This document shows, in pieces, positions 1-16,581 of a stretch of DNA of 64,000 bases. The stretch comes from a virus: IMG/VR virus record IMGVR_UViG_3300023174_003623, positions 1 to 64,000 of that record; one strand, written 5' to 3'. Under the pieces are notes generated by a model. It made no database searches. It was not told the origin of the DNA and saw nothing but the letters and a program-made list of their open reading frames with translations. Numbering within the stretch: the stretch's first letter is position 1; each line of letters begins with the position of its first letter. Both the position numbers and the translations under genes were made by a program.

Positions 1-118
1 GGCGGGGCATGCTTGACCTGGGGGGGGGGGGGGTACTTAAAAGTTTTTGCAGTTTTCGATCTGGTTCCATGGCGGCTAGCATCCCACCCCTATAAGCACC
101 GTAGAAAAAGATTGCCAT

Positions 119-240
119 GGGTCTCAAAAAAATTCGCCAGTAAAAAAAATGGCCCAAAAGCGAAGTCAAAATAAAGATTCGCAGGGGGTTCAAAAAAATT
201 CCGGGCTAAAAAAAATCATCTGAAAGTGAAGTGATTTCTA
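119..240. repeat. Two imperfect ~60-66 bp direct repeats with phased A-tracts upstream of the first promoter
   Basis: gggtctcaaaaaaattcgccagtaaaaaaaat...aaagcgaagtc (from 119) versus ggggttcaaaaaaattccgggctaaaaaaaat...aaagtgaagtg (from ~186). Confidence 0.55.
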
Positions 241-269
241 TTGACAGGGTATAAGAGTGTCTGTATAAT
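241..269 (+). promoter_or_regulatory. Consensus sigma70-type (early) promoter
   Basis: TTGACA(241-246)-17 nt-TATAAT(264-269), with A-tracts upstream. Confidence 0.85.
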
Positions 270-332
270 GCCTATGTGCTTTATCATATACTTAAATAAT
301 AAATAGCATATAATAATCTATAGAGTATTCTT

Positions 333-1220
333 ATGATAACAACCTTTAAAACCTTTATTGAACATATAATAGTAGAGAATCTTGCACCTACTTTACAGAG
401 AATCATTCAGAATCCTAAGCCAGCTAGAGCAAAGCAGGATGCATTAGCTCAAGAGATACGTCGTCTTGGTTCCATTGGTGAGAGGACTGGTATTGAGGGT
501 AACATGCCTAAAGGTTCATCAAGAGCTTATTTACAACATGCGACTCCTGAGAATGTGACTGTTGATGGTCATAAGACAAAGATGAAGGTTGGTACAAAGG
601 TTGCTATTCGTTCTGTATTGGATAGGTATCATAGGGGTGATAAAAGTCTTGGTGAGATGCAGAATATAACGGAGAATGGCGATCATTTTGTTAATAAGTC
701 TTATCGGATATTGACTAAAAATCCTCATACGGGAGATTATACTACCAATCATGAGCGCGGTATTTTGCCTCCTTTGATTAGTCATGATGAGGAAAATCAT
801 CAATCTTCAACGGTAGGGCATGTAAGAGATATAAAAGATCCAGAGTTTAAAAAGCTAACAAAGACTCAGACATTCTTTTCTATGGATACTGATTTTCCTA
901 AAGGCATTTCGCATAGAGATTTTTCGGATGCTTTAAATCGTCGTTATGATAGAAACAATGGTAGGTATTGGGAAAAGAGTCCTGAACGAGAAGCGCAGTT
1001 AGATAAGATTGACGAGCATCCATTGGTTCAGAAGTTTCATGACTACCACGATATGACTGGGCATCCTACTCACGATCTTGCACAAATTAAGAACTTAGGT
1101 GTATTTGAGCATCCTGTGACTGGTGAGGCTCATATTGTAGCGAGAGATCATGGATATGGTACTGATGTCATGCACGCCTATTCAATGGCTCGTAGAATCA
1201 ATAATCAGGGATATAGGTAG
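333..1220 (+). CDS. Putative protein-kinase-like fold protein with internal-protein-like N-terminal leader
   Basis: 295 aa. Kinase-like motifs in order: GSSRAY (Gly loop), KVA (Lys), QNxxE (alphaC Glu), HDLAQIKNLG (catalytic D...N), ARDHGY (DFG-like). Confidence 0.55.
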   Translation: MITTFKTFIEHIIVENLAPTLQRIIQNPKPARAKQDALAQEIRRLGSIGERTGIEGNMPKGSSRAYLQHATPENVTVDGHKTKMKVGTKVAIRSVLDRYHRGDKSLGEMQNITENGDHFVNKSYRILTKNPHTGDYTTNHERGILPPLISHDEENHQSSTVGHVRDIKDPEFKKLTKTQTFFSMDTDFPKGISHRDFSDALNRRYDRNNGRYWEKSPEREAQLDKIDEHPLVQKFHDYHDMTGHPTHDLAQIKNLGVFEHPVTGEAHIVARDHGYGTDVMHAYSMARRINNQGYR

Positions 1221-1225
1221 ACGTA

Positions 1226-1906
1226 ATGAACAAGGTAGAATTATATGCCTCTTTTATTAGTGATCAAGTAGCTTTGAATGAAGTATTTGGTGGTCATGAT
1301 GTAGGCTATTCGTATGTAAATGATACTAGACCTACTGGCATTCCTAATCATCACTATTATAACATAAAACTTCCTGATAACGCTCAGGATGCGACAGTTG
1401 AAATATATCATCATAAAAAAATTGATAGTCCTGCCACAGCTACTGTAGGTTTTACGATGCCTAGAGTGGGTTATGGGTTATCTCCTGAAGCAAAGAAAAC
1501 TTATGATAAAACCTTTGACGATCATGTAGCGAAGGGAAACGACCATTACGATGCACATGGTGAGGCTGTTAGGGCTGTTGATAAAGCGCATGGTGAAGAT
1601 GAAGCAGACAAAGCGGATAATGGGTTTACTGGTGGGAATACAAGCACTAGAGCATATAATTCATCCCGCCATAATTACCGTATATTTTCTACTATATCTA
1701 AGATTATGAATGAGCATGGTAAGAATCATCCTGAGATTAAGCACTTTGCATTTTCTTCTTCAGGAGATTTTAAATCGAGAGGTGATTTATATCATCTACT
1801 TGCCAAAAAGAATGGTGGTGAGGTGCATATTGACCACAATCAATATTCTCCTTCTTATGGTGAGAAGTATTACACTATACCCAATCCTCATTATAAGGGA
1901 GAATGA
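1226..1906 (+). CDS. Tandem paralogue 1 of 4, unknown function
   Basis: Shared leader MNKVELYASFISDQV.L.E.FGG and C-terminal IFST..KI...H..../SSSGD..R..LY motif. Confidence 0.85.
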   Translation: MNKVELYASFISDQVALNEVFGGHDVGYSYVNDTRPTGIPNHHYYNIKLPDNAQDATVEIYHHKKIDSPATATVGFTMPRVGYGLSPEAKKTYDKTFDDHVAKGNDHYDAHGEAVRAVDKAHGEDEADKADNGFTGGNTSTRAYNSSRHNYRIFSTISKIMNEHGKNHPEIKHFAFSSSGDFKSRGDLYHLLAKKNGGEVHIDHNQYSPSYGEKYYTIPNPHYKGE

Positions 1907-1908
1907 GA

Positions 1909-2556
1909 ATGAACAAAGTAGAATTATATGCCTCCTTTATTAGCGATCAGGTTTATCTGAATGAAATGTTTGGTGGAAGAGATAAAGGGTATCCGTATAA
2001 GGAAAAACCGATCAAAAGTAAGGATACCTATGGATATAATATAGATCTCCCTGATAATGTTAGCTCAGCAGGTGTTGGTATTATGCATGGTCTTAATACT
2101 GCCCATGTAGCTTTTTCAATGCCAAAAGCTGGTTATGGTATATCTCCTGAAGCAAAAAAGACTTATCATGAAGTTTATGATCAACATTTAAGCCAGCATG
2201 GAGATAAGACAGATGCTCATATTGCTGCGACTCAAGCTGTTTTACATAAGCATAGTGCAGCAGATGCAAAGTTAGCGAATGATGCGCTACAAAGTGGATC
2301 TACAATTACAAGACCAAATAACTCAGCACATCATAATTATAGTATATTTTCTACTATGAAGAAGATTATGGATGAGCATGGTAAGAAATATCCTGATATT
2401 AAACAGTTTATGTACACTTCTTCTGGAGATTCTGATAACAGAGGTAGGGTATATAGTCATTTTGCTCAAAAGAATGGTGGTACAACAAATTTTGAATCTG
2501 ATGGCGATGTAAATTATACTATACCTAATCCTCATTATAAGGGAGAATCAAAATGA
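1909..2556 (+). CDS. Tandem paralogue 2 of 4, unknown function
   Basis: Same leader and motifs. The ATG at 1909 matches the paralogue starts and has SD aaggga. Confidence 0.85.
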   Translation: MNKVELYASFISDQVYLNEMFGGRDKGYPYKEKPIKSKDTYGYNIDLPDNVSSAGVGIMHGLNTAHVAFSMPKAGYGISPEAKKTYHEVYDQHLSQHGDKTDAHIAATQAVLHKHSAADAKLANDALQSGSTITRPNNSAHHNYSIFSTMKKIMDEHGKKYPDIKQFMYTSSGDSDNRGRVYSHFAQKNGGTTNFESDGDVNYTIPNPHYKGESK

Positions 2557-3203
2557 ACAAAATAGATTTGTATGCCTCCTTTATTAGCGATCAGGTTTAT
2601 CTGGATGAAATGTTTGGTGGAAGAGATAAAGGGTATCCGTATAAAGATTTAGGCCCAGATGAAGAGTATAAAGAAGACCACCATTATGCTTTCGATATAC
2701 CTGACAATGCTGGAAAGGGTAAAGTTAAAATTACGGCAGAAGGGGATGGTACTCATCATGTAAACTTTACTGTTCCATCAAAGGGTTATGGGTTATCTCC
2801 TGAAGCAAAGAAAACATATGATAAAGAATATGATAAACAGATTTCTTTAGGTAATGAACATTTTGATGCCCATCTTAGTGCAGTTAAACAAGTTTATGCT
2901 AAGCACGGAGAAGATGAAGGTCAAAAAGCACGGGATTCTTTTAGTTCTTCAGTAAACAGAGGAGAAGATCCGCTTGCATCTAAACACAATTATGCTATAA
3001 TGTCTACTGTAGGTAAAATTCTTCGTGATCATGCTAAGAATCATCCAGAAGTTTCTCATTATAGATTTTCTTCTTCGGGAGATGTTAACTCAAGAGACGA
3101 TCTATATGATTTTATTACCCAAAAAGAGGGTGGCACAACGGAAACTATGCCTTCGTATGGAAAAACTAAATATAAACAATATACCATACCAGTAAAGAGA
3201 TAA
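2553..3203 (+). CDS. Tandem paralogue 3 of 4, unknown function
   Basis: MNKIDLYASFISDQVYLDEMFGGRDKGY leader, GYGLSPEAKKTY block. Confidence 0.85.
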   Translation: MNKIDLYASFISDQVYLDEMFGGRDKGYPYKDLGPDEEYKEDHHYAFDIPDNAGKGKVKITAEGDGTHHVNFTVPSKGYGLSPEAKKTYDKEYDKQISLGNEHFDAHLSAVKQVYAKHGEDEGQKARDSFSSSVNRGEDPLASKHNYAIMSTVGKILRDHAKNHPEVSHYRFSSSGDVNSRDDLYDFITQKEGGTTETMPSYGKTKYKQYTIPVKR

Positions 3204-3207
3204 TTAT

Positions 3208-3897
3208 ATGAACAAAATAGATTTGTATGCCTCTTTTATTAGCGATCAGGTTCATCTAGATGAAATGTTTGGTGGTAGAGATAAAGGGTATTCGTATGAT
3301 AAAATGAAAGAGCACCCTGATGATTTAGATCATATGTATCGTATTCATACGGGATCAGTATTTCCTGCTGTGCTTTATATTAATCATGACGAAAATACTA
3401 AAAATGCTGATGTTTCTTTTGTTACAGCAAAAGATCCCTCTAAAGTACATCACCATGTAAATGATGATAAAGTAGAAACTCAAAGAAGAGAAATGACTCC
3501 AGAAGAAAAGACTACGTTTATCAATGCTTATAAAGATAGTATGAAAAAAAATCCTACAGAATATATGGAACATCATTTTGGACTAGCTAATCATGCGCTT
3601 TATTTAAAACATAACATTACTATTCCTCACCCATATTATGATACAGAACAGACTCCTGCATTAGCAAAACACGCTACTAGATTATTTTCTACTATAGGCG
3701 ATATCTTAAAGAAACATGCAAAGAAATATGATGTTAATAATTATGAATATATGGGAGAAGGTGATTCTCGCAATAGCCTATATAATCGTATAGCAGCAAG
3801 GTTTGGTGGTAAAAAAGGAGAAACATCAAGTCCAACTGTCCATGGTAACTCATACACTCAATATTCAATTCCGGCTGGTGTTAAAAAACAAAAATAA
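3208..3897 (+). CDS. Tandem paralogue 4 of 4 (most diverged), unknown function
   Basis: Same leader; LFSTIGDIL..H and GDSRNSLY motifs. Confidence 0.85.
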   Translation: MNKIDLYASFISDQVHLDEMFGGRDKGYSYDKMKEHPDDLDHMYRIHTGSVFPAVLYINHDENTKNADVSFVTAKDPSKVHHHVNDDKVETQRREMTPEEKTTFINAYKDSMKKNPTEYMEHHFGLANHALYLKHNITIPHPYYDTEQTPALAKHATRLFSTIGDILKKHAKKYDVNNYEYMGEGDSRNSLYNRIAARFGGKKGETSSPTVHGNSYTQYSIPAGVKKQK

Positions 3898-3912
3898 AAG
3901 GTAAATTATATT

Positions 3913-4584
3913 ATGAATATAATGCAAATAAGTTTAAATAATGAAATCTATCAACCTTTAGCAGACATTACTGCTAATAATAAAATGTTATATTGTGAGA
4001 AACATGGGTATCGTTTTTTCAATAAAACTAGTGGATTTACTTATAACAATACCATAAGTGATTTGGGATTTGAAAAAATTAAGATAATATTAGATCTTTT
4101 TGAAAAAATGCCCGATTTAGATTGGATACATTGGACTGGTTGTGATACAATGGTGACGAACTTTAATATCAGACTAGAAGACATCATTGATGAAGAATAT
4201 CATATGATAGTTTGTGTTGATGGAAATGGTATCAACGCAGATAGTTTTTTAATTAAAAATAGTCGTGTAGGTCGAGGTTTAATGCAATGGATACTCGATA
4301 ATATCGACACTTATAGAAATCATTGTTGGCTTGAACAACAGGCTATGATAGACTTTTATTTCAAGAATCCTCTTGGTAAAGATATAATTAAAATATTACC
4401 TCAAAGGGTAATGAATAGTTATTTACATGATTTATATCCACACGCAAAAGGTAAATATAATGTAGATAAAACTGGAAATAATGCTGAATGGGCAAAGGGC
4501 GATTTTATTTTACATTTACCCGCATTACCTCTACAGACAAGAATTGATGTTATGAAAGAATATGTAAATAAGGTGACACTATGA
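3913..4584 (+). CDS. GT-A glycosyltransferase, GT34/MNN10-like
   Basis: YCEKHGY, DWIHWTGCD, GINADSFLIKN, WLEQQAM, RVMNSY and GDFILHLP motifs. Confidence 0.7.
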   Translation: MNIMQISLNNEIYQPLADITANNKMLYCEKHGYRFFNKTSGFTYNNTISDLGFEKIKIILDLFEKMPDLDWIHWTGCDTMVTNFNIRLEDIIDEEYHMIVCVDGNGINADSFLIKNSRVGRGLMQWILDNIDTYRNHCWLEQQAMIDFYFKNPLGKDIIKILPQRVMNSYLHDLYPHAKGKYNVDKTGNNAEWAKGDFILHLPALPLQTRIDVMKEYVNKVTL

Positions 4585-5885
4585 AAGATGTATATGATTT
4601 GGTAAATTCCTATAAGAAAGATAAAACTTGGATTGCAGGACAAGATTTTGTTCCTTATGCTGGTCCCTTTTTTGATGAAAAAGAACAAATTGCAGCCATT
4701 GAGTGCATTCTTGATGGATGGTTAGTTATGGGTAAGAAGTCAATGGCTTTTGAAAGAAATTTTCCTAAGCAATTTGAAAAGACGCATGGAATCTTGACTA
4801 ACTCTGGTTCTTCTTCTAATCTTCTTATGATGTCTGCGTTGACTAGTAAGACGTTTGGGTGGCCTAAAGGGACTAAGGTATTGATGCCTATTGCTGGATT
4901 TCCTACAACACTAAACCCTACATTACAGGTTGGGTTTGAACCTGTGTTTGTTGATATTGAAATTGATAGTTTGAATCTAGATATTGATAAGGTCGAGCAG
5001 GTATTGCTTAAAAATAAAGATATCAAGATTATTACGTTCGCCCATGTATTGGGTAATCCGCCAAACATGGATCGATTGATGGATTTAGTTCATCATTATC
5101 GTTTAATTTTACTTGAAGACTGTTGTGATGCTCTTGGAAGTACTTACAATGATAAGCCACTAGGATCTTTTGGTATGATGGCAAGTTGTTCTTTCTATCC
5201 TGCACACCATATGACGATGGGTGAGGGTGGATTTGTAGCCTGTTCAGATCCTGTAACTGAAGATGTGCTTAGAAGTTTCCGAGAATGGGGTCGTGGTTGT
5301 TATTGTGTTGGTCCAGAAGCTAATAAATTGAAGTGTGGTACCTGTAAGAAGCGGTTTTCTAACTGGGTTCCTTCAATGCCTAATGAAATTTTCGATCATA
5401 AGTTCATTTATAATGAAATTGGATACAATTTAAAGCCTATTGAATTACAGGCAGCAATGGGATTGGAACAAATTAAAAAATTACCTGAAATTCATGCGTT
5501 ACGTCGTCGAAATTATAGTCTTTTGATGAAAATTTATGAAAAATATGAAGAATTCTTTCATCTTCCAAGGGCTACAAAAGGTGCGAATCCAAGTTGGTTT
5601 GCTTTTCCGTTGACAATTCGTAAGGGTGCGCCATTTACTCGTACTCAGATCGTGGATTTTTTGGAAAATCACTTGATTCAGACTCGACCATACTTTGCGG
5701 GTAACATTATGCTACAGCCTGCGTATAGTCATTTGATGAATCAGGACGAAGCAAGAGATAATTTTCCTGTTGCAACTCATACAATGACTCATTCTTTTTT
5801 CCATGGCACCAGTCCTGTGATTACGGAAGAGCAAATTAAGTATATTGGTGAATGTGTAGATAAGTTTTTATCGCAATTTATTTAA
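4581..5885 (+). CDS. rfbH: CDP-4-keto-6-deoxyglucose 3-dehydrase (RfbH/DdhC E1-like, PMP and Fe-S dependent)
   Basis: DegT fold: NSGSSSNL, EDCCDALG, SFYPAHHMTMGEGG (His at the usual Lys position), WGRGCYC Cys cluster, GYNLK. Confidence 0.85.
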   Translation: MKDVYDLVNSYKKDKTWIAGQDFVPYAGPFFDEKEQIAAIECILDGWLVMGKKSMAFERNFPKQFEKTHGILTNSGSSSNLLMMSALTSKTFGWPKGTKVLMPIAGFPTTLNPTLQVGFEPVFVDIEIDSLNLDIDKVEQVLLKNKDIKIITFAHVLGNPPNMDRLMDLVHHYRLILLEDCCDALGSTYNDKPLGSFGMMASCSFYPAHHMTMGEGGFVACSDPVTEDVLRSFREWGRGCYCVGPEANKLKCGTCKKRFSNWVPSMPNEIFDHKFIYNEIGYNLKPIELQAAMGLEQIKKLPEIHALRRRNYSLLMKIYEKYEEFFHLPRATKGANPSWFAFPLTIRKGAPFTRTQIVDFLENHLIQTRPYFAGNIMLQPAYSHLMNQDEARDNFPVATHTMTHSFFHGTSPVITEEQIKYIGECVDKFLSQFI

Positions 5886-5897
5886 AGGTGATTGAAT

Positions 5898-6704
5898 ATG
5901 AATAATAAAGAATTCAAGTGTGTTGATATTCTTACCAATATGATCGAGAATTATGGTCTGATTGGTATCAAGACTTCTTTTGAGGATGAAGGTGCTCTTT
6001 TTAATGATACTATTCGTTTAAAAGAAATCTGTAATCAGGCGCAGACTAAACTTGTTCTGAAGATTGGTGGTCCAGAAGCCATTCGCGATATTAAAGATGC
6101 TTTGATTATCGGTGTCAAAGGTCTGGTTGCGCCTATGGTAGAGTCTGAGTTTGGTCTTAAAAAATTTATTCAATCTGCACATTCTCATATTCCATCTGAT
6201 GTTCTTTCTTCACTTCATCTTAATGTAAATTTAGAAACAATAACTGCCGCAGAACATGTAGAAGACATTCTGAGTATTCCTGAAGCTGAGTCTTTGTATG
6301 GGGTTACAGTAGGAAGAGTAGATCTAGTCTCTTCCATGAACAAAGATAGAACTTATGTAAATAGCGACGAAGTATATTCATTGGTGAAGACAGTGTTTGT
6401 AAAGGCGAAGAAGCGAGGACTTAAGTTATGTCTTGGTGGTGCAGTATCTGTAGAATCTTTGCCCTTTCTTAAACGATTGAATGAAGAGGGATTGTTGGAT
6501 AAGTTTGAGACACGATATGCTATTTACGATCCTGCAATTGCTCTAAAAAATTTACCAAAGGCTCTTGCTATGGGTCAGTCGTTTGAACTTGAATGGTTAC
6601 AGTGTAAGTATGAATATTATACTGCGCTAGCCAATCAAGACATAAATCGAATTCAAATGATAGAATCTCGTATGAATGAATCGAAGACGACAAAGACCAA
6701 ATGA
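5898..6704 (+). CDS. HpcH/HpaI aldolase/citrate-lyase-like protein
   Basis: KIGGPEA, VAPMVES, NLETIT and GRVDL motifs; sugar-cluster context. Confidence 0.7.
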   Translation: MNNKEFKCVDILTNMIENYGLIGIKTSFEDEGALFNDTIRLKEICNQAQTKLVLKIGGPEAIRDIKDALIIGVKGLVAPMVESEFGLKKFIQSAHSHIPSDVLSSLHLNVNLETITAAEHVEDILSIPEAESLYGVTVGRVDLVSSMNKDRTYVNSDEVYSLVKTVFVKAKKRGLKLCLGGAVSVESLPFLKRLNEEGLLDKFETRYAIYDPAIALKNLPKALAMGQSFELEWLQCKYEYYTALANQDINRIQMIESRMNESKTTKTK

Positions 6705-7087
6705 GTTATAATAAAAAGGTACTTGACGAAGAATCGCGAATTCTAGCTATAGATTTTGACGGAGTAATTCACACTAATCAATATGGATTTCATGACGGAA
6801 CAATCTATGGCACTCCAATTGCAGGTTCACTTGAATCTATTAAAGAACTAGCCAATTCATATGATTTAGTAATTTATACTGCAAAGGCGAAAAAAGATAG
6901 ACCGCTTGTTAATGGAAAGACGGGTACTGAGTTGGTATGGGAATGGCTCAAAAAATATAACATAGATATTTATATTAAGAATGTAACTGCTGAAAAACCA
7001 AGATGCATTTGCTATATAGATGATAAAGCTATTCGATTTGTTGACTGGCACCAAACTATGATCAATCTTAAACAAATTATAAAATAA
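6701..7087 (+). CDS. Small HAD-superfamily phosphatase
   Basis: AIDFDGVI motif I, YTA motif II, EKP and YIDDKA motif IV. Confidence 0.8.
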   Translation: MSYNKKVLDEESRILAIDFDGVIHTNQYGFHDGTIYGTPIAGSLESIKELANSYDLVIYTAKAKKDRPLVNGKTGTELVWEWLKKYNIDIYIKNVTAEKPRCICYIDDKAIRFVDWHQTMINLKQIIK

Positions 7088-7088
7088 A

Positions 7089-8840
7089 ATGAAAATATCT
7101 GACATTGTAATTCAATTCCTAGAATCAAAAGGAATTGAACATGTATTCGTCGTTTCTGGCGGTGGATGTATTCACCTAGTGGATTCTCTAGGTAAATCCA
7201 AACTCAATTATATCTGTATGCATCATGAGCAGGCAACTGCTATGGCAGCAGAGGGATATGCTCGTATTAAAAATGATGTCGCTGCATGTTTGGTTACCAC
7301 TGGTCCGGGTGGTACAAATGCACTGACGGGTGTTTTAGGTTGTTGGTTAGACAGCATTCCTACTATTTTTATTTCCGGTCAAGTATCATTGTCTCAGATA
7401 GCAAGAGGTACTGGTTGTCGTCAAATAGGTGACCAAGAATTTGATATTATCTCTACAGTAAAATCTATGACAAAATACTGTAAGATGATTGAGAATAAGA
7501 ATGAAATTCTTTATGAATTGAACAAGGCTTATGATATAGCTAAATCAGGGCGTCCCGGTCCTGTATGGTTAGATATTCCTTTAGATATTCAAGGTTCATT
7601 TGTCGAGGAACATGAGTTAATTCCTGTGCAGTCGTTTATAGAAGAACGATCTGTGATTCAAGAATCAGATATATTACAGTTTAAGATATTATTAGAAAAA
7701 TCTAAAAAGCCATTGATTATATGTGGCAATGGGATTCGTCTTTCAAATAGTGTAGACCTATTAAATTTTTTCATTAAATCCAATGAGATTCCTGCATTGA
7801 CTGGAGTTCATTCTGGTGTTGATTGTCTAGATAACACTTATGACTATTATGCCGGAAGGATCGGACTTCTAGGAAATTTATCATCAAATAAGATAGTTCA
7901 AGAAGCGGATTTGTTGATTGTGCTTGGCTCTAGATTAAATGTAAAGATGACTGGTTATGATCCAAGTTTGTTTGCGCCGAATGCTAAAAAGATTTTTGTA
8001 GATATTGACATGAATGAAATTCGTAAACATAAGTTGAATATTGACCTAAAAATTAATGCGGATTTAAATATATTTTTAAATACTATAATTAAGCAACAAT
8101 ACAAATTAGAATTTGAAGATTGGCGTGAATTTGTACGCACTGCTAGGTCTGAACAAAAATATGTATATCCTAAACATATCAATTTAAAGTCTCCTGCAAG
8201 TGTATATTACTTTCTATATCTTTTTCAGAATTATATGAAAGATCTGCCAATCATAACTAGCAATGGAACCGCACATGTAGCTACTCTTCAGACTATTCAA
8301 CTAAAAAATAAACAGAGAATGTTTACTAACGTTGGTTGCGCTAGTATGGGTTATGGATTACCTGCTGCAATTGGTGCATCTTTTGCGTTGAATAAATCAC
8401 CTGTTATCTGTATAGAGGGTGATGGTAGTTTACAGATGAACATACAAGAACTACAGACTCTTGTACACTATAAGCTTCCCGTGGTAATGATTGTGATTAA
8501 TAATGATGGCTATATCTCGATTAAGATAACTCAACAGAATTTCTTTAGTGGTTATGAAGTTGCAAGTGGAAAAGAAAGCGGAGTATCGTTTCCATCCTTA
8601 GAAAAGCTAAGTGATGCATATGGTATAGAGTATCACAAAATAACTCGTAACTCAGAAATTGATAATGTATTGTTCGATATATTTTCTTCTGATATTTCTG
8701 GTCCAATTATTTGTGAAGTGTTTACGCATCCAAATGAAAAGCACGAACCAAAGGTAATTCATAAAGGTATAGATAAAGATGGGAAAATTATTCCCGGTGA
8801 TTTAACTAATATGTTCATTTCAGAAACGTTTGATAATTAA
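7089..8840 (+). CDS. ThDP-dependent acetolactate-synthase-like enzyme (YerE-like)
   Basis: HHEQATAMAAEGYAR, TTGPGGTN, GRPGPVWLDIPLD, SMGYGLPAAIG and GDGS...NN ThDP motif. Confidence 0.85.
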   Translation: MKISDIVIQFLESKGIEHVFVVSGGGCIHLVDSLGKSKLNYICMHHEQATAMAAEGYARIKNDVAACLVTTGPGGTNALTGVLGCWLDSIPTIFISGQVSLSQIARGTGCRQIGDQEFDIISTVKSMTKYCKMIENKNEILYELNKAYDIAKSGRPGPVWLDIPLDIQGSFVEEHELIPVQSFIEERSVIQESDILQFKILLEKSKKPLIICGNGIRLSNSVDLLNFFIKSNEIPALTGVHSGVDCLDNTYDYYAGRIGLLGNLSSNKIVQEADLLIVLGSRLNVKMTGYDPSLFAPNAKKIFVDIDMNEIRKHKLNIDLKINADLNIFLNTIIKQQYKLEFEDWREFVRTARSEQKYVYPKHINLKSPASVYYFLYLFQNYMKDLPIITSNGTAHVATLQTIQLKNKQRMFTNVGCASMGYGLPAAIGASFALNKSPVICIEGDGSLQMNIQELQTLVHYKLPVVMIVINNDGYISIKITQQNFFSGYEVASGKESGVSFPSLEKLSDAYGIEYHKITRNSEIDNVLFDIFSSDISGPIICEVFTHPNEKHEPKVIHKGIDKDGKIIPGDLTNMFISETFDN

Positions 8841-8861
8841 TGATTCAGAAAAGGAAATATA

Positions 8862-9656
8862 ATGAAAATTGCAGTCATAGGATCTAATGGATTTGTTGGT
8901 AGAAATGTATTCAATTTTTTAAAATTAAAAAATCATAATGTACAAGGTCTAAATCGAAATAACATTGATTTATTAGATCCAAAACAAGTTAACTTTTGGT
9001 TAAAAAGCAATCGACCAAATATTATTATTAATTGTGCTGCTATTATGAAAGATAATAATAGTATAAATGATTGTAGAAATAATCTTGCAATTTTTATTAA
9101 TTTATTTAATAATGCACATTTATTTGATAAATTTATAGATACAGGTTCTGGTGCTGAATTTGATAGAACAACAAATATTGAAAATGCATCAATTGATAAA
9201 TTATTTGATTCGATTCCCTTAGACAGTTATGGATTTGGGCAAAACATCAAATCTCGTATGTGTCGCGAAAGAGAAAATTTTTATACATTAAGAATTTTTA
9301 ATTGTTTTGGTCGAGGTGAATTGAATACTAGAATTATTCCCAAATTTCTTACTTCTAAAAATACATTTAAAATTTTTGATGATAGATATTTTGACTATTT
9401 TGGTATACAAGATTTAAATGCAGTTGTTGAGCATTATGTAGACAATGATGTTTTTTTTAAAGATATAAACACAGTTTATATGAAAAAAGTTAAAATATCA
9501 GAAATGTTAAAACTGTATTGTGAAATACATAATATTTCGGTTAATAATTTTGAAATAGAATCTGTATCTAATTTAAATTATACTGGAGATGGTACTTTAT
9601 TAAATAATTTAGGTTTAAAATTATTAGGCCTTGAAGAGTGTTTAAAGAGATATTAA
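8862..9656 (+). CDS. NAD(P)-dependent epimerase/reductase (extended SDR)
   Basis: GSNGFVG Rossmann motif, INCAA, GSGAEF, RIFNCFG. Confidence 0.75.
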   Translation: MKIAVIGSNGFVGRNVFNFLKLKNHNVQGLNRNNIDLLDPKQVNFWLKSNRPNIIINCAAIMKDNNSINDCRNNLAIFINLFNNAHLFDKFIDTGSGAEFDRTTNIENASIDKLFDSIPLDSYGFGQNIKSRMCRERENFYTLRIFNCFGRGELNTRIIPKFLTSKNTFKIFDDRYFDYFGIQDLNAVVEHYVDNDVFFKDINTVYMKKVKISEMLKLYCEIHNISVNNFEIESVSNLNYTGDGTLLNNLGLKLLGLEECLKRY

Positions 9657-9657
9657 A

Positions 9658-10452
9658 ATGTATACAATTAATAAATGTTTAGCGTGTGGATCTAAAAATA
9701 TTGTAATTAAATCTACAAAACTAGCTAGGTTTGTTGCTTGGAAAACATCGAATACCCCTATGTCTGAGGATATAGATATTGAAGGTTTACAATGCAACGA
9801 TTGTTCATATGTTGGTTCTAATCATAGATTTACCATTCAAGAAGAACATAACTTGTACAATCAATACAGAGGGCCAGAATATAATTCTATTCGTTATGAA
9901 TGTGAACCAAATTATATTAAAATAGATAAATTTATTAAAACTAATGAATATTTTTTAATAAGAAAGACTGGAATTGATATATTGGTTGAAAAAAATATTG
10001 ACACCAATGATATTAAATCATTATTAGATTATGGTGGTGAAGCAGGCTCTATGATACCATCTATCTTAAATAAAGCAAAAAAATACGTTTTCGATATTAG
10101 TGATGTACCGGTTCAATCTAATGTTATTAAATTAAAACAAATAGATCTCAATAATACATTTGATTTTGTTATGTGTTGTCATGTATTAGAACATGTATCA
10201 GATTTAGATACATTTATTAGCAATTTTAAAAAAGTTATTAATAAAAATACATGGATATATTTTGAAGTGCCTAACTACCCAAATCCATTTATTGGGAAAT
10301 TTCACGAACATATTAATTTTTTTAATAAAAAATCATTTACTTCGTTTTTAGTAAGAAATGAGTTTTGTATAAAAGATACATATGAATATAACATTGATGT
10401 TGATATGCATCATTTTAATAATTTGTGTATGATGGTAAAATTAAATGAATAA
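9658..10452 (+). CDS. Class I SAM-dependent methyltransferase with N-terminal CxxC..CxxC
   Basis: LLDYGGEAG, FDFVMCCHVLEHV, FEVP, EHINFF. Confidence 0.8.
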   Translation: MYTINKCLACGSKNIVIKSTKLARFVAWKTSNTPMSEDIDIEGLQCNDCSYVGSNHRFTIQEEHNLYNQYRGPEYNSIRYECEPNYIKIDKFIKTNEYFLIRKTGIDILVEKNIDTNDIKSLLDYGGEAGSMIPSILNKAKKYVFDISDVPVQSNVIKLKQIDLNNTFDFVMCCHVLEHVSDLDTFISNFKKVINKNTWIYFEVPNYPNPFIGKFHEHINFFNKKSFTSFLVRNEFCIKDTYEYNIDVDMHHFNNLCMMVKLNE

Positions 10453-11401
10453 AATATTAATAATTGGCGGTGCTGGATATGTAGGATCTCCTTTATCTAT
10501 TGAATTAGATAAAAGAGGACATGATGTTTCCATAGTAGATTTACTTTGGTTTGGTAATAATTTACCAAATCATTTAAAAAATAAAGTGCAAAAAATTGAT
10601 GCATTAGATTTAACAGTTAATGATTTAAAAATATTTGACACTATAATTTTTGTTGCAGGTTTATCTAATGATCCTATGGCAGATTATTCTCCTTCTAAAA
10701 ATTTTGTTGCTAATTCAGCAACACCAGCATATCTTGCTTATATTGCAAAAAAAGCTGGTGTTAAAAGAATGATTTATGCAAGTAGTTGTTCTGTGTATGG
10801 TTATACAGTAGATAAATGTTTTGATGAGACTGGTCCTACCAACTCAATATATCCTTATGGAATATCTAAGTTGCAAGGTGAGAATGCAGTTATGCAATTA
10901 GTCGATGATTCCTTTTCTGTCATCTCCCTTAGAAAAGGAACTGTATCTGGCGTTAGTTCTAGGATGAGATTTGATTTAGTAGTAAATGCAATGTTTAAAA
11001 CAGCTTTAACATCTAGTACTATATTTGTAAATGATCCTTCCGTATGGAGACCTATTTTAGCACTTAAAGATTGCATTTCTGCATATATATGTGCGGTAGA
11101 ATCTGATATTAAAGTTTCTGGAATTTTTAATATTGCTTCGGATAATTACACTGTAAATCAAATAGCAAACATTGTTAAAGATACTATAGAAACCGAAAAA
11201 AATATTAAGGTGAATATTATTAATAATAATATTAAAGACGTTAGAAATTATAAAGTTGATTGTAATAAAGCTAAACAAATTTTAGCATTTTCCCCCTTGA
11301 ATAATGTTGAATTAATTGTAAAAGATCTTTTATCATATAATGATTTTGGAGATATGGAAAATTCATTGTTTTATAACATTAAAACGTTTTCTAATTTATA
11401 A
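10445..11401 (+). CDS. NDP-sugar epimerase/dehydratase (extended SDR)
   Basis: GGAGYVG, ASSCSVYG and YGISK (YxxxK). Confidence 0.85.
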   Translation: MNKILIIGGAGYVGSPLSIELDKRGHDVSIVDLLWFGNNLPNHLKNKVQKIDALDLTVNDLKIFDTIIFVAGLSNDPMADYSPSKNFVANSATPAYLAYIAKKAGVKRMIYASSCSVYGYTVDKCFDETGPTNSIYPYGISKLQGENAVMQLVDDSFSVISLRKGTVSGVSSRMRFDLVVNAMFKTALTSSTIFVNDPSVWRPILALKDCISAYICAVESDIKVSGIFNIASDNYTVNQIANIVKDTIETEKNIKVNIINNNIKDVRNYKVDCNKAKQILAFSPLNNVELIVKDLLSYNDFGDMENSLFYNIKTFSNL

Positions 11402-11417
11402 TAAATAAAGAAAAATC

Positions 11418-11446
11418 TTTACATTGATAATGTAATTAGTTATAAT
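11418..11446 (+). promoter_or_regulatory. sigma70-type promoter
   Basis: TTTACA-17-TATAAT just upstream of ORF 11462. Confidence 0.6.
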
Positions 11447-11461
11447 AATGAGAATGTTAAA

Positions 11462-11812
11462 ATGATTAATATAAAAGTTGATGAAGCATATGCTTTTGAC
11501 ATGCTTAGTGTTCTAGATATAAAAAAGAAAAATTCTCCAAAAGATCAGTGTAATTTTGATACAATGTCTTGTGATATTGAAATTCAGATTGGATCTAAAT
11601 TGTTCAAACAAATTTTGAATTCAAATGTATATTCTCAAATGATTACGGTAAATCAAATCATTTATGATTTGATTGACGCGATAAGAAAAGGTAACTTACA
11701 TCTCGATGCTAGAGTTATTGATGATGCTAATACTGACCGTTTTAAAATAAAACAAAAATTACAAAGCGAATTCTTTCTTAATGAATTGGTTGAGAATAAA
11801 ATACAAAATTAA
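11462..11812 (+). CDS. Hypothetical helical protein within the sugar island
   Basis: 116-aa ORF with SD; D.LSVLDIK...N..R..IK pattern resembles small proteins of glyco-clusters. Confidence 0.6.
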   Translation: MINIKVDEAYAFDMLSVLDIKKKNSPKDQCNFDTMSCDIEIQIGSKLFKQILNSNVYSQMITVNQIIYDLIDAIRKGNLHLDARVIDDANTDRFKIKQKLQSEFFLNELVENKIQN

Positions 11813-11827
11813 ATATAGAAGGAAATT

Positions 11828-12862
11828 ATGAAAAAGGCGATAATTACTGGTGTTACAGGGCAAGATGGTTCATATTTAGCTGAATTTTTAATTGAAAAGG
11901 GTTATGAAGTTCATGGCACTATTCGTAGAACTAGTGACCGTGATCATAAAAATTTAACCAAAATTAAAAATCAAATAATTTTTCATCAAACTGATTTAAC
12001 AGATTATAATTCAATATCTCGCTGTATTGAAAACATTTCCCCAGATGAAATTTATAACTTAGCGGCTCAAAGTCATGTTAAATTAAGTTTTGACTTACCT
12101 CTTAACACATCTGATGTTAATGCTTTAGGGCCACTTAGAATACTTGAAGCTATACGCAATCTTAAACCGAATACACGTTTTTATCAGGCTAGTACTTCTG
12201 AACTATATGGTGTAGTTGACCATGCACCTCAAAATGAAAATACAGTATTTAAACCAGCTAGCCCATATGGTATAGCTAAACTATTTGCTCATTGGTCAGT
12301 AGTAAACTATCGTTTTGGTTATAATATATTTGCGTGTAATGGTATACTTTTCAATCATGAAAGTCCTCGGCGTGGAGATATATTTGTAACAAAAAAAATT
12401 ACAAAAGCATTTGCAAAAATATTTTTAGATATAAATGCTGGATATGACCATACACCGGTTCAATTGGGTAATTTAGATAGCATGAGAGATTGGGGACATG
12501 CTAAAGATTATGTAGAAGCTATGTGGTTAATGATGCAAAAAGATACGCCAGATGATTATGTAATTAGCACTCAAATTCAATATTCGATTAGAGACTTTTG
12601 CAAAATGGCAGCTGAGTATTTTAATATGGATCTTGAATGGGAAGGCAAAGGAAAACAAGAACAGGCAATAGATCGTAAGACAGGAAAAATTATTGTAACG
12701 GTAAATCCTGAATTTTATAGACCGGTTGATGTAGTAAATTTGCTTGGTAATTCTTCGAAGGCGCGGAATATATTAAATTGGAAACCTAAATACGATTTGA
12801 ATAAGATGGTAGAAGAAATGTGTAAATATGATTTAGATGAAGAGGTAAAAAAATATGCTTAA
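11828..12862 (+). CDS. gmd: GDP-mannose 4,6-dehydratase
   Basis: ITGVTGQDGSYLAE, YNLAAQSHV, YQASTSELYG, NHESPRRG, RDWGHAKDYV. Confidence 0.95.
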   Translation: MKKAIITGVTGQDGSYLAEFLIEKGYEVHGTIRRTSDRDHKNLTKIKNQIIFHQTDLTDYNSISRCIENISPDEIYNLAAQSHVKLSFDLPLNTSDVNALGPLRILEAIRNLKPNTRFYQASTSELYGVVDHAPQNENTVFKPASPYGIAKLFAHWSVVNYRFGYNIFACNGILFNHESPRRGDIFVTKKITKAFAKIFLDINAGYDHTPVQLGNLDSMRDWGHAKDYVEAMWLMMQKDTPDDYVISTQIQYSIRDFCKMAAEYFNMDLEWEGKGKQEQAIDRKTGKIIVTVNPEFYRPVDVVNLLGNSSKARNILNWKPKYDLNKMVEEMCKYDLDEEVKKYA

Positions 12863-14015
12863 TTGGCCTTTAATGCAAAACGCGATCAAGTTTACTGATC
12901 GACTAAAGTTATGTAAGTTTCTTTTAACGTCTGATCGTTATACAAATGGACCTAAAGTTCGTGAATTTGAAAAGATGTGGTCGGATTGGATTGAAACTAA
13001 ACATTCACTAATGGTCAGTTCAGGTTCTACGGCAAATTTTTTATTACTAGCTGCTATCAAAGAAAAACATGGATTGAAAGAAGGAGATAAAGTACTAGTA
13101 CCAGCTTGCACTTGGGTAACTAATGTTAGTCCTATTATTCAACTTGGATTAATTCCAATCTTTTGTGATGTTAATTTTGAAAATTTTAGTTTTAATATTC
13201 CTGAACTTGAAAAAATTAAAATCAAGCATGATATTAAAGCTATCTTTATTACTCATCTTCTAGGTTTTAGCGCAGATAATGAAAAATATAAGGAAATATT
13301 TCCAAATGCTATTATCTTAGAAGATGTATGCGAAAGTCATGGTTGTCGGAGTGATAGTGGAGAACTCCGTGGACGAGATAATGGAACATTTAGTTTTTAT
13401 TTCGGTCATCACATGACTACAATTGAAGGTGGTATGGTTACCACAAATGATGACGATCTATATGAACTTATGCGTATGAAGAGGAGTCATGGTTTAGCGC
13501 GTGAATCTGGAAACTTATCTAAGTATACTTCTAAATATCCAGATATTCATCCACAGTTTTTATTTGCTACAGATGGATATAATTTTAGAAGCACTGAAAT
13601 TAATGCTATTCTAGGTATGCAACAACTACCAAGATTAAATGGATTTATTGACACTAGAAAGAAAAATTTTAGTATATTTGTAGATCTATTAGATGAGTAT
13701 AAAGATTTATTTTATCCTCTTGTAGATCAAAAAGGTAATAGTAATTATGCTTTTCCATTTATTTGTAAAAATCCAAACATTAAACATAAACTAATGCAAT
13801 TATTTGATGCAAATAAAATAGAAAATCGTCCTATTGTTAGTGGAAATCTATTAAAGCAACCTTTCTTAAAAGGCTATGATTTTGCAATTAAATCTAAATC
13901 TTATAATGCTGATGTGTTAAATGATAACGGATTATATATTGGGAATAGTCAATTTGTAAATCCAAATCAAATTTATAAATTGTTTGAATTAATAGCCAAA
14001 GAATTTAAAAAATAA
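12855..14015 (+). CDS. DegT-family PLP enzyme, ColD-like GDP-4-keto-6-deoxymannose 3-dehydratase
   Basis: SSGSTAN, EDVCESHG, SFYFGHHMTTIEGG (His replaces the Lys), no Fe-S Cys cluster; overlaps gmd. Confidence 0.75.
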   Translation: MLNWPLMQNAIKFTDRLKLCKFLLTSDRYTNGPKVREFEKMWSDWIETKHSLMVSSGSTANFLLLAAIKEKHGLKEGDKVLVPACTWVTNVSPIIQLGLIPIFCDVNFENFSFNIPELEKIKIKHDIKAIFITHLLGFSADNEKYKEIFPNAIILEDVCESHGCRSDSGELRGRDNGTFSFYFGHHMTTIEGGMVTTNDDDLYELMRMKRSHGLARESGNLSKYTSKYPDIHPQFLFATDGYNFRSTEINAILGMQQLPRLNGFIDTRKKNFSIFVDLLDEYKDLFYPLVDQKGNSNYAFPFICKNPNIKHKLMQLFDANKIENRPIVSGNLLKQPFLKGYDFAIKSKSYNADVLNDNGLYIGNSQFVNPNQIYKLFELIAKEFKK

Positions 14016-14025
14016 AGGATATATT

Positions 14026-14706
14026 ATGTTATTTGCATACAGAAATTTTAAAAGAAATAAAATGGTAAATCTTTCTGCTACTAGCATTAAGCATTTTGTT
14101 CCAGACGCTAAAATTTATTGTGTTACATTTTATGAAAATAGCCCAGATGAGTATGATGATCAAGAGCCTCTTTTACCATTTATAGAGGAGCGAAAAGTCA
14201 AAACCAAGTATCCCAATACAAATGGTAAACCTCATGATCATCCTGATGTGCATGCTACAAGTGGACAAGGGAGTCCTGATACTTCTAAATATTTTGCAGA
14301 AGGTTATAATGAAATTTGGAAATGGCTTCGCGATACACAAGAAAAAGTTTTAATGCTAGGTGAAGATGAATTCTATACTACAGGCGAAGTATTAAAAGAT
14401 TTTATAGATAATCAAGATAAATATTGGGCAGCATTTGGTTCTTGGTGTTGGTGGGGATATGAAGAAAAATGGGCAAATGGTACCTGTATATGTTTTGACC
14501 TAAAAACTTTAGATGGTTTATTTCCGTTAGACGAAAATGGGCCAGCATTTGTTGAAGGATTACTTTATCATACATTATGTCGTATCCCTAGAGAACATAG
14601 ATATATAATTGAAAAAAGAACTTTTGAGAATTATCATGGAGATGGGATGAGAACAAATTCTTCCGCTAAAATGGAAGAAGAACTTATAAAAGCCGGTATA
14701 ATTTAA
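14026..14706 (+). CDS. Hypothetical protein, possible GT-A-like glycosyltransferase
   Basis: SIKHFVPDA and GYN.....VLMLGEDEF (DxD-like) pattern; last gene of the sugar island. Confidence 0.45.
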   Translation: MLFAYRNFKRNKMVNLSATSIKHFVPDAKIYCVTFYENSPDEYDDQEPLLPFIEERKVKTKYPNTNGKPHDHPDVHATSGQGSPDTSKYFAEGYNEIWKWLRDTQEKVLMLGEDEFYTTGEVLKDFIDNQDKYWAAFGSWCWWGYEEKWANGTCICFDLKTLDGLFPLDENGPAFVEGLLYHTLCRIPREHRYIIEKRTFENYHGDGMRTNSSAKMEEELIKAGII

Positions 14707-14859: not shown

Positions 14860-14929
14860 AATCTTATGGAACAACCGAAGCTTACTGAAGACAATTTGAT
14901 AAACTGTCATACAAATTTGGAATAAATAA

Positions 14930-15252
14930 TATTGTTGGTATGGTCGTATGAAGTAAAGGGAAGGTATTCTGGACGCGGGTGCGAATCCCGCCACCTCCAC
15001 CAAAAGCATATTGTAAATATGATGCTGTCGAAGCACACTGGTTCAGCAATCAATAAATGTTTCGTGAGTATACTTTTGATGGGGGTGACTAGATTCGACA
15101 GGGTAAGATACTGATACAGACGACTCGGTAGGCGATGACCGTAAATCAAGCAAAAAATATAAAAGCCAATGATGACTTTTACGGAGATTATGCACTAGCT
15201 GCATAATTCTTCTGGGGTTTCGCTAGCTGTCCTTATTACCCAATCAGCTAGC
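14930..15252 (+). ncRNA. ssrA: Circularly permuted (two-piece) tmRNA gene; tag (A)NDDFYGDYALAA at 15165-15206
   Basis: Acceptor-piece 3' end GACGCGGGTGCGAATCCCGCCACCTCCACCA ends at 15002, before the coding-piece 5' end GGGGGTGA...TTCGAC at 15081. G3.U70 pair present; tag ends in LAA*. Outer ends approximate. Confidence 0.9.
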
Positions 15253-15288
15253 ACTTTACACACAACATTCAAAGTTACAAATAAATTT

Positions 15289-15750: not shown

Positions 15751-16581
15751 ATGTTATCTTTCTTTAATTTTCTTTTAGAAGAATTAGATTTAACTGATAA
15801 TGATAAAAATAAATCAGATGCTATTGGAAAAGTTCATGAATTTCTTGTTCATAGAAATTTAGGTGGAAAGGCTACTCCACAAGAAAGATTAGCTCATAAA
15901 AAACATATACAATTTATAGGTAAACAACGTTATAATGCCGCTGTAATAAGAGCACAACATGCGTCAGATCATATTGAAAAACATCTTATAGGAAGAAAGA
16001 ATGTTGCTCGTGTGGAGAGAGTTTCTGGTACAGGTAACCCACAAGATCCATCAGATTTGCATATACACTTTGCTAATGGTAAAAAGATTGGTATTAGTTT
16101 AAAAACTACAGAAGGCGATTCTAAAGCAGTAAAACTTTCTAATCCCGGTCTTACTGCTGCGAATAGCATTCATGGAGAAAAAATTGAAAGAGGAGCCGAT
16201 ACTCAACAATATATGTGGGATATTGCACATAGAATTAATACAGGATTTAATGATGCTTCTCCAGAAGAAAAACATGACTATTTAAAAAAACATGTTTTTA
16301 GAGTACCAGACACCCATGAAGTAAATGGTGTACATACTATAAATCAAAATAAAATGCCAGCTACTGCACATTTTAGATATCATGAACATTTTACACCTTT
16401 AATTAAAGATACCGAAAATATTACAACAAAAAGAACTGGGTACACTGTTAATTTTTTTCATCCTTCATCAAAAACACCTGTTGTAACATTAAGAATAAAA
16501 CGTAAAGATGCTAGTCCAAGATCCTCAATTAAGGCTTTAGTTACTACCAATATTATTCCAAAATCTAATTATAAAAGATAA
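15751..16581 (+). CDS. Putative PD-(D/E)XK endonuclease-like protein with internal-protein-like leader
   Basis: G..HE early helix, PSDL.I.......IGISLK motif; MLSFFNFLLEE leader. Confidence 0.5.
   Translation: MLSFFNFLLEELDLTDNDKNKSDAIGKVHEFLVHRNLGGKATPQERLAHKKHIQFIGKQRYNAAVIRAQHASDHIEKHLIGRKNVARVERVSGTGNPQDPSDLHIHFANGKKIGISLKTTEGDSKAVKLSNPGLTAANSIHGEKIERGADTQQYMWDIAHRINTGFNDASPEEKHDYLKKHVFRVPDTHEVNGVHTINQNKMPATAHFRYHEHFTPLIKDTENITTKRTGYTVNFFHPSSKTPVVTLRIKRKDASPRSSIKALVTTNIIPKSNYKR

Follow-up and report, generated by a model that had tools for sequence, protein, structure and literature searches.

The first 64,000 nucleotides of IMG/VR virus record IMGVR_UViG_3300023174_003623 (hereafter the window) open a linear viral contig of 154,777 bp, with an estimated completeness of 81%, whose source is an uncultured, freshwater, T4-like myovirus. 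At positions 1226–3897 the window carries an array of four paralogous genes whose products share a short N-terminal leader, and which we consider likely, from sequence comparison and by analogy to T4, to encode precursors of internal head proteins (IPs), probably together with the 295-residue product of the gene directly upstream.

Four tandem genes behind a common leader

All four genes lie head to tail on the plus strand. Paralogue 1 (1226–1906) encodes 226 residues, with a predicted mature part of 207 residues from V20 and an isoelectric point (pI) of 6.6; paralogue 2 (1909–2556) encodes 215 residues when read, in line with the other copies, from its MNK start, its open reading frame (ORF) opening at 1903 (217 residues); paralogue 3 (2553–3203, 216 residues) overlaps the stop of copy 2 with its start (ATGA); and paralogue 4 (3208–3897, 229 residues) is the most divergent, with a degenerate ChaB-like block. 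Protein identity to copy 1 is 54%, 50% and 31% for copies 2, 3 and 4, respectively. The block GYG[LI]SPEAKKTY is present in copies 1–3 and degenerate in copy 4, the IFST/KI..H, SSGD..R..LY and YTIP motifs are kept in all four copies and throughout the wider family, and the His content of the mature parts is 5.6–8.2%. A preliminary description of this DNA had pointed to the tandem arrangement, to near-identical leaders at the DNA level and to shared motifs in His-rich products, and all three observations are borne out by the ORFs, the alignment and the amino acid composition.

Over the first 30 codons, the copies have 22–28 of 30 residues and 76–96% of bases in common, compared with 44–64% of bases over the remainder of the genes. 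The 19-codon leader of copy 1 (MNKVELYASFISDQVALNE, 1226–1282), with a cut predicted after E19 by comparison with T4 leaders, recurs as a 57-nt stretch at 1909–1965, 2553–2609 and 3208–3264, and the repeat search also returns a 91-nt leader repeat with four occurrences. A 151-nt junction block (1853–2003), which runs from the 3′ part of one copy into the leader of the next, is repeated at 2497–2647 with 89% identity; in it, the AAGGGAGAA ribosome-binding site of the following copy lies within the codons of the C-terminal ..PNPHYKGE, and the block as a whole is a candidate substrate for unequal recombination. Among identical residues, codon identity is higher in the leader than in the rest of the gene for copies 2–3 (24/25 vs 43/68, p = 9e-4), copies 3–4 (23/26 vs 24/47, p = 1e-3) and copies 2–4 (p = 0.03), with no such excess seen for the three pairs involving copy 1 (p = 0.09–0.73). 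An Rfam search of positions 1–4200 returned no RNA family.

The window leaders conform to MNK[VI][ED]LYASFISDQVxLxE followed by [VM]FGG, with L-N-E or L-D-E at residues 17–19 in all four copies. In the T4 record (AF158101), IPII and IPIII open with MKTYQEFIAE followed by A, and IPI opens with MKTFKEFTSTTTPVSTITE followed by A, which leaves a mature part of 76 residues, in agreement with the relevant part of a review. The Y-A-S-F-I-S-D stretch of the window leader matches the T4 pattern Y-Q-E-F-I-A-E with its final Glu changed to Asp, and an L-x-E follows six residues on. According to a section of a T4 head-assembly review, targeting sequences span 10–19 residues, of which residues 4 and 7 serve targeting and residues 8 and 10 processing, and an Asp at position 10 prevents processing while still allowing targeting. 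Such an effect fits a window leader with a blocked first site and a used second one and, by analogy, the first F-I-S-D site is likely blocked by its Asp. Leaders that bridge the two forms are found among metagenomic relatives: P0011, whose mature part is 90% identical to that of copy 3, opens with MITTFKEFISEQEALNE followed by MFGG, P0016 with MITTFKDFIAINE followed by IFSGG, and P0142 with MISFRQYIQE followed by VFSGG. Furthermore, all 18 full-length members of the clade that carries the ChaB-like insert have [LIM]-[ND]-E at the cut position.

The machinery that would read such a signal is encoded in the same contig, with a Peptidase_S77 prohead protease (gp21, E = 3.4e-39), a T4_CASP scaffold protein (gp22, E = 6e-66) and a major capsid protein (Gp23, E = 3e-147) whose L-G-E at 56–58 lies at most 4 alignment columns from the L-T-E at 63–65 of its T4 counterpart. 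That the window leader is, as the preliminary description had proposed, a capsid-targeting sequence ending in a prohead-protease site, here in an extended version of the T4 sequence, is thus well supported by comparison with the T4 IP leaders, with the leaders of most of 142 relatives and of unrelated cargo, and with the gp21, gp22 and gp23 genes. The accompanying comparison with the T4 IPI locus extends to the leader only, a family-profile search of the T4 genome at E ≤ 10 having detected no homology of the mature part to IPI*.

The leader is not confined to the array. The first gene of the operon (333–1220, plus strand), which encodes a 295-residue protein of a family unlike that of the array, opens with MITTFKTFIEHIIVE followed by NLAP. 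It has 213 homologues, on contigs of up to 200 kb; the 120 that were inspected carry the consensus ..NFKDF..N.IVE followed by NLHPEL, with an [LIVM]-x-E that ends within residues 7–25 in each. Moreover, the start MITTFK.FI is common to the 295-residue protein, P0011 and P0016. We therefore regard the 295-residue protein as a candidate fifth capsid-targeted protein. Numerous Gly, His, Asp, Asn and Arg positions are invariant in its family, which has an enzyme-like look; a polyvalent-type kinase identity was considered and dropped, since the Atlas score of 0.89 lay under the bar and a Pfam kinase match was found in none of 37 homologues (E ≤ 1).

Further instances point the same way. In L025, where a bona fide GNAT (Acetyltransf_7) adjoins family members, alignment of this GNAT to the profile of the array family with hhalign matches the leader alone (13 columns, 62% identical), and an 841-residue DUF6267 protein (L012) combines the leader with a family core free of the insert. 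Within the contig, the strict leader motif occurs at 7 of 170 N-termini of ORFs of at least 100 residues, vs 3 of 822 internal Met positions, and the same leader type is found on seven or eight further ORFs of the genome (e.g., MLSFFNFLLE, MLKFSKFIVE and MLSFFEFITE). Those with the 10-residue T4-type pattern lie on the plus strand at 15751–16581 of the window and at 110050–111960, 127716–128366, 128656–129558 and 131821–132372 of the contig, and on the minus strand at contig positions 131372–131764 and 141201–141446. As judged from these sequences, the leader is a portable module shared by sequence-unrelated cargo, and the phage may load about a dozen different proteins into its head.

A predicted GNAT-like core, its insert and its relatives

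Structure prediction and Foldseek comparison of the mature core, proposed in the preliminary description, return a GNAT-like fold. The AlphaFold2 model of copy 1 (13 sequences; predicted local distance difference test, pLDDT, 78.5; predicted template modelling score 0.75) comprises, in order, a leader helix, four strands, three helices (87–135), a long helix (147–167), a strand, a helix and two strands, with the leader helix detached from the core at a pLDDT of 37–46. The short relative P0025 (63 sequences) is modelled at a pLDDT of 90, and its 17 Foldseek matches in the PDB at E ≤ 1e-3 are all GNATs; the copy 1 model has none at that threshold, its best match (E = 1.5e-2) likewise falling among GNATs. 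In VIA-align searches of 48,161 chains, the top Z was 10.1 for copy 1 (3igr_B; root-mean-square deviation, rmsd, 3.7 Å over 127 aligned residues) and 9.5 for P0025 (5ix3_A, rmsd 2.9 Å, 112 aligned). All chains in the two top-50 lists have the GNAT fold; nearly all are acetyltransferases, the others being antizyme, Elp3 and a few functionally uncharacterised chains. Since best Z values of 7–8 are common in such searches, scores of 9.5–10.1 indicate a shared fold rather than a shared function. On these models, the mature core is a GNAT-like alpha/beta domain, one that lacks the two helices that come after strand 1 in GNATs. Invariant or nearly so in the family are the His of K.HA..HP and the S-R-x-x-L-Y motif, and the SR..LY...GG stretch presumably resembles the GNAT segment with the catalytic Tyr.

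Between strand 4 and the long helix (helix 3) of the GNAT-like core, the window proteins carry an insert of about 65 residues with a predicted three-helix, ChaB-like character. In copy 1, residues 81–129 (1466–1612, plus strand) align to positions 5–56 of 60 of the Pfam ChaB model (PF06150), which is also the precomputed Pfam entry for the cluster of copy 1; copies 1, 2 and 3 score 26.7, 22.9 and 19 bits, under the gathering cut-off of 27, and copy 4 gives no match. ChaB is described as a three-helix domain of about 60 residues in PMC514712. GNATs canonically have a Q/R-x-x-G-x-G/A CoA loop between strand 4 and helix 3; in short relatives the same loop is long and reads T-G-x-x-G-x-x-A. Inspection of the model places the insert at the position of the GNAT loop that contacts the coenzyme A (CoA) pyrophosphate, so that acyl transfer by the window proteins would be doubtful.

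Comparison of sequences further indicates that the mature core is related to the uncharacterised viral Pfam family DUF6934 (PF22028). Many relatives, mostly multidomain, score over the DUF6934 cut-off of 27 bits (P0048, 80.5 bits; P0027, 62 bits), in the ESM Atlas the neighbours of copy 1 include viral clusters of DUF6934 (0.91–0.93), and the window family and DUF6934 have the motifs KVFSTV..I..H, F.S and SR..LY...GG in common. The DUF6934 model itself has no match in the window copies at E ≤ 0.01; these differ from the Pfam family by the insert of about 65 residues and a longer leader. A PDB sequence search with the family profiles (A4, A2) returned nothing meaningful, and a PHROGs search with the five window proteins (array and 295-residue protein) gave no match, nor did a megablast search of positions 1–8000 against cultured phage records. 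The relatives themselves match PHROGs weakly, at phrog_6387 and phrog_16075 alone, both of unknown function.

A word-indexed look-up of close proteins yielded 11 proteins, and a profile search 142 representatives at E ≤ 1e-3, 31 of them at E ≤ 1e-10. Most of the 142 are 140–160 residues long and free of the insert. The strict targeting pattern is found in 70 of 139 relatives examined, and in 65 of the 97 that are at most 180 residues long; the other 69 include truncated and multidomain proteins as well as variants such as M-x-x-L-x-E-I-[FL]-D. Across the family, the N-terminal consensus reads M-[LK]-[TS]-F-K-[QE]-[FY]-[IL]-x-E followed by [SIL]-[FLG]-D-x-x-Y-P-[FY], the second part corresponding to MFGGRDKGYPY in the window copies, and the leader-terminal Glu is nearly invariant. 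A profile built from 63 short relatives, window sequences excluded, finds the four copies at E = 4e-20 to 4.5e-14, with no other match in this genome. Several relatives are polyproteins: the three cores of P0027 are separated by ..SLDE followed by ILDSHYPF, L-x-E junctions such as would be expected of protease-released cargo. Arrays are also found elsewhere: in a complete 283-kb phage that encodes a gp21-type protease, a cluster of three genes holds four family domains.

Larger and more distant relatives join the core to other domains. P0022, a metagenomic protein of 628 residues, combines an N-terminal Tad3 domain (Thoeris inhibitor family, E = 2e-42) with three DUF6934-like cores; the junctions between its cores read S-[VI]-E followed by A-S-F, unlike L-x-E. 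The core is fused to Zeta_toxin in P0089 and P0095, to a cytidine deaminase and ParB_N in P0127, and elsewhere to cytidylyltransferase, methyltransferase and true GNAT domains. GNAT, zeta-toxin, ParB, deaminase and methyltransferase domains belong to the repertoire of capsid-delivered polyvalent proteins, as described in passages of PMC5512222. The domain company of these distant relatives, the sole link of the family to defence, is suggestive, no more, of a conflict role.

Paralogue history and genome setting

In a 19-member tree, each window copy pairs at 100% support with an orthologue of its own from other metagenomes (copy 1 with P0002, 84% identical; copy 2 with P0006, 95%; copy 3 with P0011, 90%; copy 4 with P0017, 83%). 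With its own orthologue for each copy, and with differences spread evenly along the proteins, the copies are old, stably kept paralogues, and the hypervariable, rapidly diversifying cores of the preliminary description are not borne out. The leaders behave differently. Likeness among the window paralogues is 15–18 of 19 leader residues, compared with 7–18 of 19 between orthologues, and Asp13 is present in all four window copies, with Glu in the orthologues of copies 3 and 4. The leaders within the genome thus evolve in concert, and the cores do not. P0010 and P0011 have the mature part in common and differ in leader type.

Two contigs from run X4 suggest, at the sequence level, natural variants without copy 3 or with another first cassette. 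One, of 732 nt, joins 2552 to 3208 and skips exactly copy 3, with 255 letters on the shorter side and 26 common at the joint; the second runs from the 295-residue gene into the leader and then into a sequence hand-translated as KDIESTDP, which is that of a P0003-type paralogue and implies a different cassette in the first slot of the X4 variant. Both are short-read assemblies from relatives about 95% identical, with joins through repeats at which mis-assembly is possible. A contig from run X2 that joins 2782 back to 1468 was not counted as a recombinant, since the join passes through a 33-nt exact repeat and may be an assembler artefact. Shuffling at conserved DNA blocks, which the preliminary description had also proposed, thus gains some support from the concerted leaders, the different leaders of P0010 and P0011 and the X4 contig without copy 3. 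That conserved linkers of about 100 bp drive T4-type cassette shuffling is a published idea for promoter-stem-loop elements, as set out in passages of PMC2839356.

The motifs upstream of the operon are of two kinds. A sigma-70-type promoter, TTGACA-17 nt-TATAAT (241–269, plus strand), with 12 of 12 matches, lies 64 nt before the ATG at 333, and a late-promoter-like AATAAATAG (298–306, plus strand) lies 28 nt before it. The late-type motif also precedes the gp18, gp19, gp22, gp23 and gp25 genes by 25–58 nt. The exact TATAAATA was not found in positions 1–4000, where the looser NATAAATA is present; in the genome, which is 92% coding, NATAAATA has 49 plus-strand sites, 27 of them intergenic, and it stands 28–40 nt upstream of four of the further leader-bearing ORFs (starts 15751, 110050, 127716 and 131821). 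With both kinds of motif 5′ of the operon, early and late expression would each be possible, as judged from motif matches. Perfect sigma-70 promoters with near-identical spacers (TTGACAC.CAG.ACCAG.CC..TATAAT) recur on the plus strand in a small-ORF region at contig positions 142217, 145194, 146497, 147394 and 148062, a repetition at 142–148 kb that is reminiscent of the promoter cassettes of T4-type hyperplastic regions. Immediately 5′ of the operon promoter lies a 60-nt direct repeat (107–166 and 173–232, 73% identical), and the contig end itself (window 1–232) opens with a poly-G run that is probably an assembly edge.

The remainder of the window encodes gp32, gp59, RNase H, gp5, gp6, gp8, gp25, gp53, baseplate and tail-tube proteins and a tRNA cluster, and the contig beyond it the portal protein gp20, terminase, sheath and replication genes. 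Among cultured phages, the closest capsid proteins belong to Stenotrophomonas phage DLP_6 (68%), the Methylophilales phage Melnitz group (65%) and the Pelagibacter phages Mosig and HTVC008M (64%), and the freshwater metagenome run X2 has a close strain, with all 10 compared contigs at least 99% identical. A tmRNA on the plus strand at 14903–15258 of the window (Rfam beta_tmRNA, 116 bits with a cut-off of 84; tmRNA_permuted, 146 bits), with the ARAGORN tag peptide ANDDFYGDYALAA, is of the beta type and hints at a betaproteobacterial host. Directly after the array, a long plus-strand sugar-nucleotide/glycan cluster (3913–14706) includes a GT34-type glycosyltransferase, two DegT aminotransferases, a GDP-mannose dehydratase, epimerases, a thiamine pyrophosphate-dependent (TPP) enzyme and methyltransferases. 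Between the portal and protease genes, at the T4 gp67/gp68 position, a 332-residue ORF (contig 94911–95909; L006:14911–15906) has the N-terminus MINLSE and repeated ..[ST]D.ELK.II.. stretches, and is possibly a further processed core protein. Finally, a RecA/UvsX-like ORF (contig 119060–119980; L008:3060–3977) carries at its C-terminus a domain of the Hint/intein type (PT-HINT, Intein_splicing), and a NUMOD3 ORF comes next, an arrangement that probably reflects an intein or a split recombinase gene.

Probable internal head proteins and competing explanations

Taken by analogy to T4, the four array proteins, and probably the 295-residue protein, would be made as precursors whose 19-residue leader binds the assembling prohead core; a gp21-type protease would then cut after the L-x-E at residue 19, and mature proteins of about 22–24 kDa would remain in the head and exit with the DNA at infection. 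Because the shared leader resembles the T4 head-loading signal, the proteins are probably injected with the DNA. Our best guess as to their role is host take-over or counter-defence through the binding or acylation of a host target, with the four old paralogues acting as specificity variants; an anti-defence role in particular would be plausible. The conserved leader and junction DNA would keep the leaders matched to the phage’s own core, while allowing cassettes to be lost, swapped or recombined.

The resemblance to the T4 IPs lies in the leader pattern M-x-[TS]-[FY]-x-[EQ]-F-[IT]-x-E with its gp21-type (L/I)-x-E end, in a leader length of 19 residues as in IPI, in the presence of the leader on unrelated cargo, and in the setting of non-core, variable genes in a phage with gp21, gp22 and gp23. 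The differences concern the cargo: the mature parts have no sequence similarity, the window proteins are larger (22–24 kDa), near neutral and His-rich, and the window array consists of four tandem paralogues in one operon. From GNATs, whose fold the models resemble, the window proteins differ by the two missing helices after strand 1 and by a CoA loop that, in the models, is filled by the insert. The cleavage motif in phiKZ and SPN3US is S/A/G-x-E. Those phages belong to another lineage, and their inner-body and ejection families would resemble the array as tandem paralogous head-internal proteins with a gp21-related prohead protease. With polyvalent proteins (Iyer et al. 2017, PMC5512222) and T4 Alt the array proteins would have in common delivery from the capsid with the DNA, and the distant relatives have the same partner domains; the window proteins, in contrast, consist of one core plus an insert rather than at least two effector domains, and would be targeted by a cleavable T4-type leader rather than by a MuF- or DarA-type module. 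IPI* has a small fold according to part of a review, compared with the GNAT-like model with its ChaB-like insert. That T4-type internal proteins are diverse and have the targeting sequence alone in common is stated in reviews, in the sections concerned, so that diverse cargo behind a common targeting sequence is an established principle; what is new is its extension to a large environmental family. Among titles on capsid targeting sequences, internal proteins and prohead proteases, none concerned GNAT-like or DUF6934 cargo, and the name DUF6934 was met in an unrelated context only.

Several observations weigh against this interpretation. The window leader exceeds the common 10-residue form and begins MNK rather than MK/ML-T/S-F; in 7 of the 18 full-length proteins of the ChaB-insert clade, the position three residues ahead of the cleavage point is Met rather than Leu or Ile; and the leader of P0025 is modelled as a helix with a pLDDT of about 75, so that the leader could partly be a structural element. 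The mature pI values are 6.6–8.8, compared with 9.0–9.7 for the basic T4 IPs. Pfam Acetyltransf families gave no match at E ≤ 0.01 in the four copies or in 25 relatives and, judging from the models, enzyme activity of the window copies is doubtful. The orthologues, 83–95% identical with differences even over the N-terminal sheet, insert and C-terminal core and no hot spots, have no arms-race look on their time scale. A tblastn search of 50,697 phage records with copy 1, P0025 and the 295-residue protein gave no match, where a gp23 query used as control finds 2,576 of the same records, and the family profile matched none of six records (T4, and Melnitz-1, DLP_6, HTVC008M, phiM12 and Mosig, five cultured phages among the top entries of the capsid-protein ranking). 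The Tad3 fusion P0022 has no N-terminal targeting sequence. Finally, the operon is preceded by a perfect early-type sigma-70 promoter of the form ..CTGTATAAT, as in the early region at 137–148 kb, and the array proteins could thus be made early, for a cytoplasmic role.

One alternative is that the proteins are packaged and yet purely structural, serving core assembly, head-size control or DNA condensation via the ChaB-like module, as has been suggested for T4 IPIII, with no effector role in the host. T4 IPIII mutants are slower in head assembly and form more polyheads, according to part of a review, the baculovirus ChaB protein is termed a putative DNA-binding protein in passages of PMC6832367, and P0111 fuses a ChaB domain to an XkdF-type head protease; the conservation of the paralogues in relatives and, in the models, the disruption of the canonical CoA loop by the insert fit as well. 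We nevertheless think this explanation unlikely, since the proteins are near neutral rather than basic, four paralogues and variants with a missing or swapped copy fit poorly with a constant structural requirement, no family member was detected in five cultured phages whose head genes are comparable, and distant relatives are found within conflict-type multidomain proteins.

Quite unlikely, in our estimate, is that the array encodes unpackaged early cytoplasmic enzymes or inhibitors, expressed from the sigma-70 promoter, with the N-terminus being part of the fold or a translational or regulatory element and the T4 likeness that of an amphipathic helix. The perfect promoter is of the same kind as the contig’s early promoters, the locus borders, in the permuted genome, on the end that carries the early genes, the leader helix of the short relative is modelled with fair local confidence, and the raised synonymous-codon identity in the leader could mean an RNA-level constraint. 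Against it speak the presence of the same leader on sequence-unrelated proteins, the near-invariant Glu at its end and the L-x-E between polyprotein repeats; moreover, a late-type promoter is present too, the modelled leader of copy 1 is poorly defined and detached from the core, and the Rfam search gave no family. That the array is an artefact of assembly or annotation, in which a repeat was collapsed or wrongly joined near a contig end that lies less than 4 kb away and opens with a poly-G run, is barely credible despite the X2 contig in which a 33-nt exact repeat links copy 3 to copy 1, perhaps an assembler error. The copies differ by 46–69% in protein sequence and have separate orthologues in other data sets, and at 99% identity or higher 29 of 30 bins are covered by X2 contigs.

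A bolder version of the internal head protein interpretation, which we hold to be improbable but worth stating, is that DUF6934 represents a widespread, undescribed class of capsid-delivered, GNAT-derived effectors in T4-like phages. Loaded by the leader, freed by gp21 and injected along with the DNA, such proteins would within seconds act on a host defence component or signal by acylating or sequestering it; tandem paralogues and L-x-E-cleaved polyproteins would form an arsenal of specificities, the ChaB-like insert would retarget the core, e.g., to nucleic acid, and the leader and junction DNA would provide head cargo with recombination cassettes of its own, much like the promoter-stem-loop cassettes in T4-type hyperplastic regions.

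Of all phage proteins, those inside the head enter the cell first, and T4 IPI*, an inhibitor of GmrSD, shows that they can disarm a host defence before phage gene expression. To our knowledge, almost nothing is known of internal head cargo outside the T-even coliphages. The locus links DUF6934, with at least 142 representative clusters, to a T4-like loading signal, provides the family with a predicted fold, and shows its occurrence in arrays, polyproteins and conflict-type fusions. The outcome is a list of candidate injected effectors for environmental T4-like phages, along with a simple N-terminal pattern with which metagenomes may be searched for such cargo.

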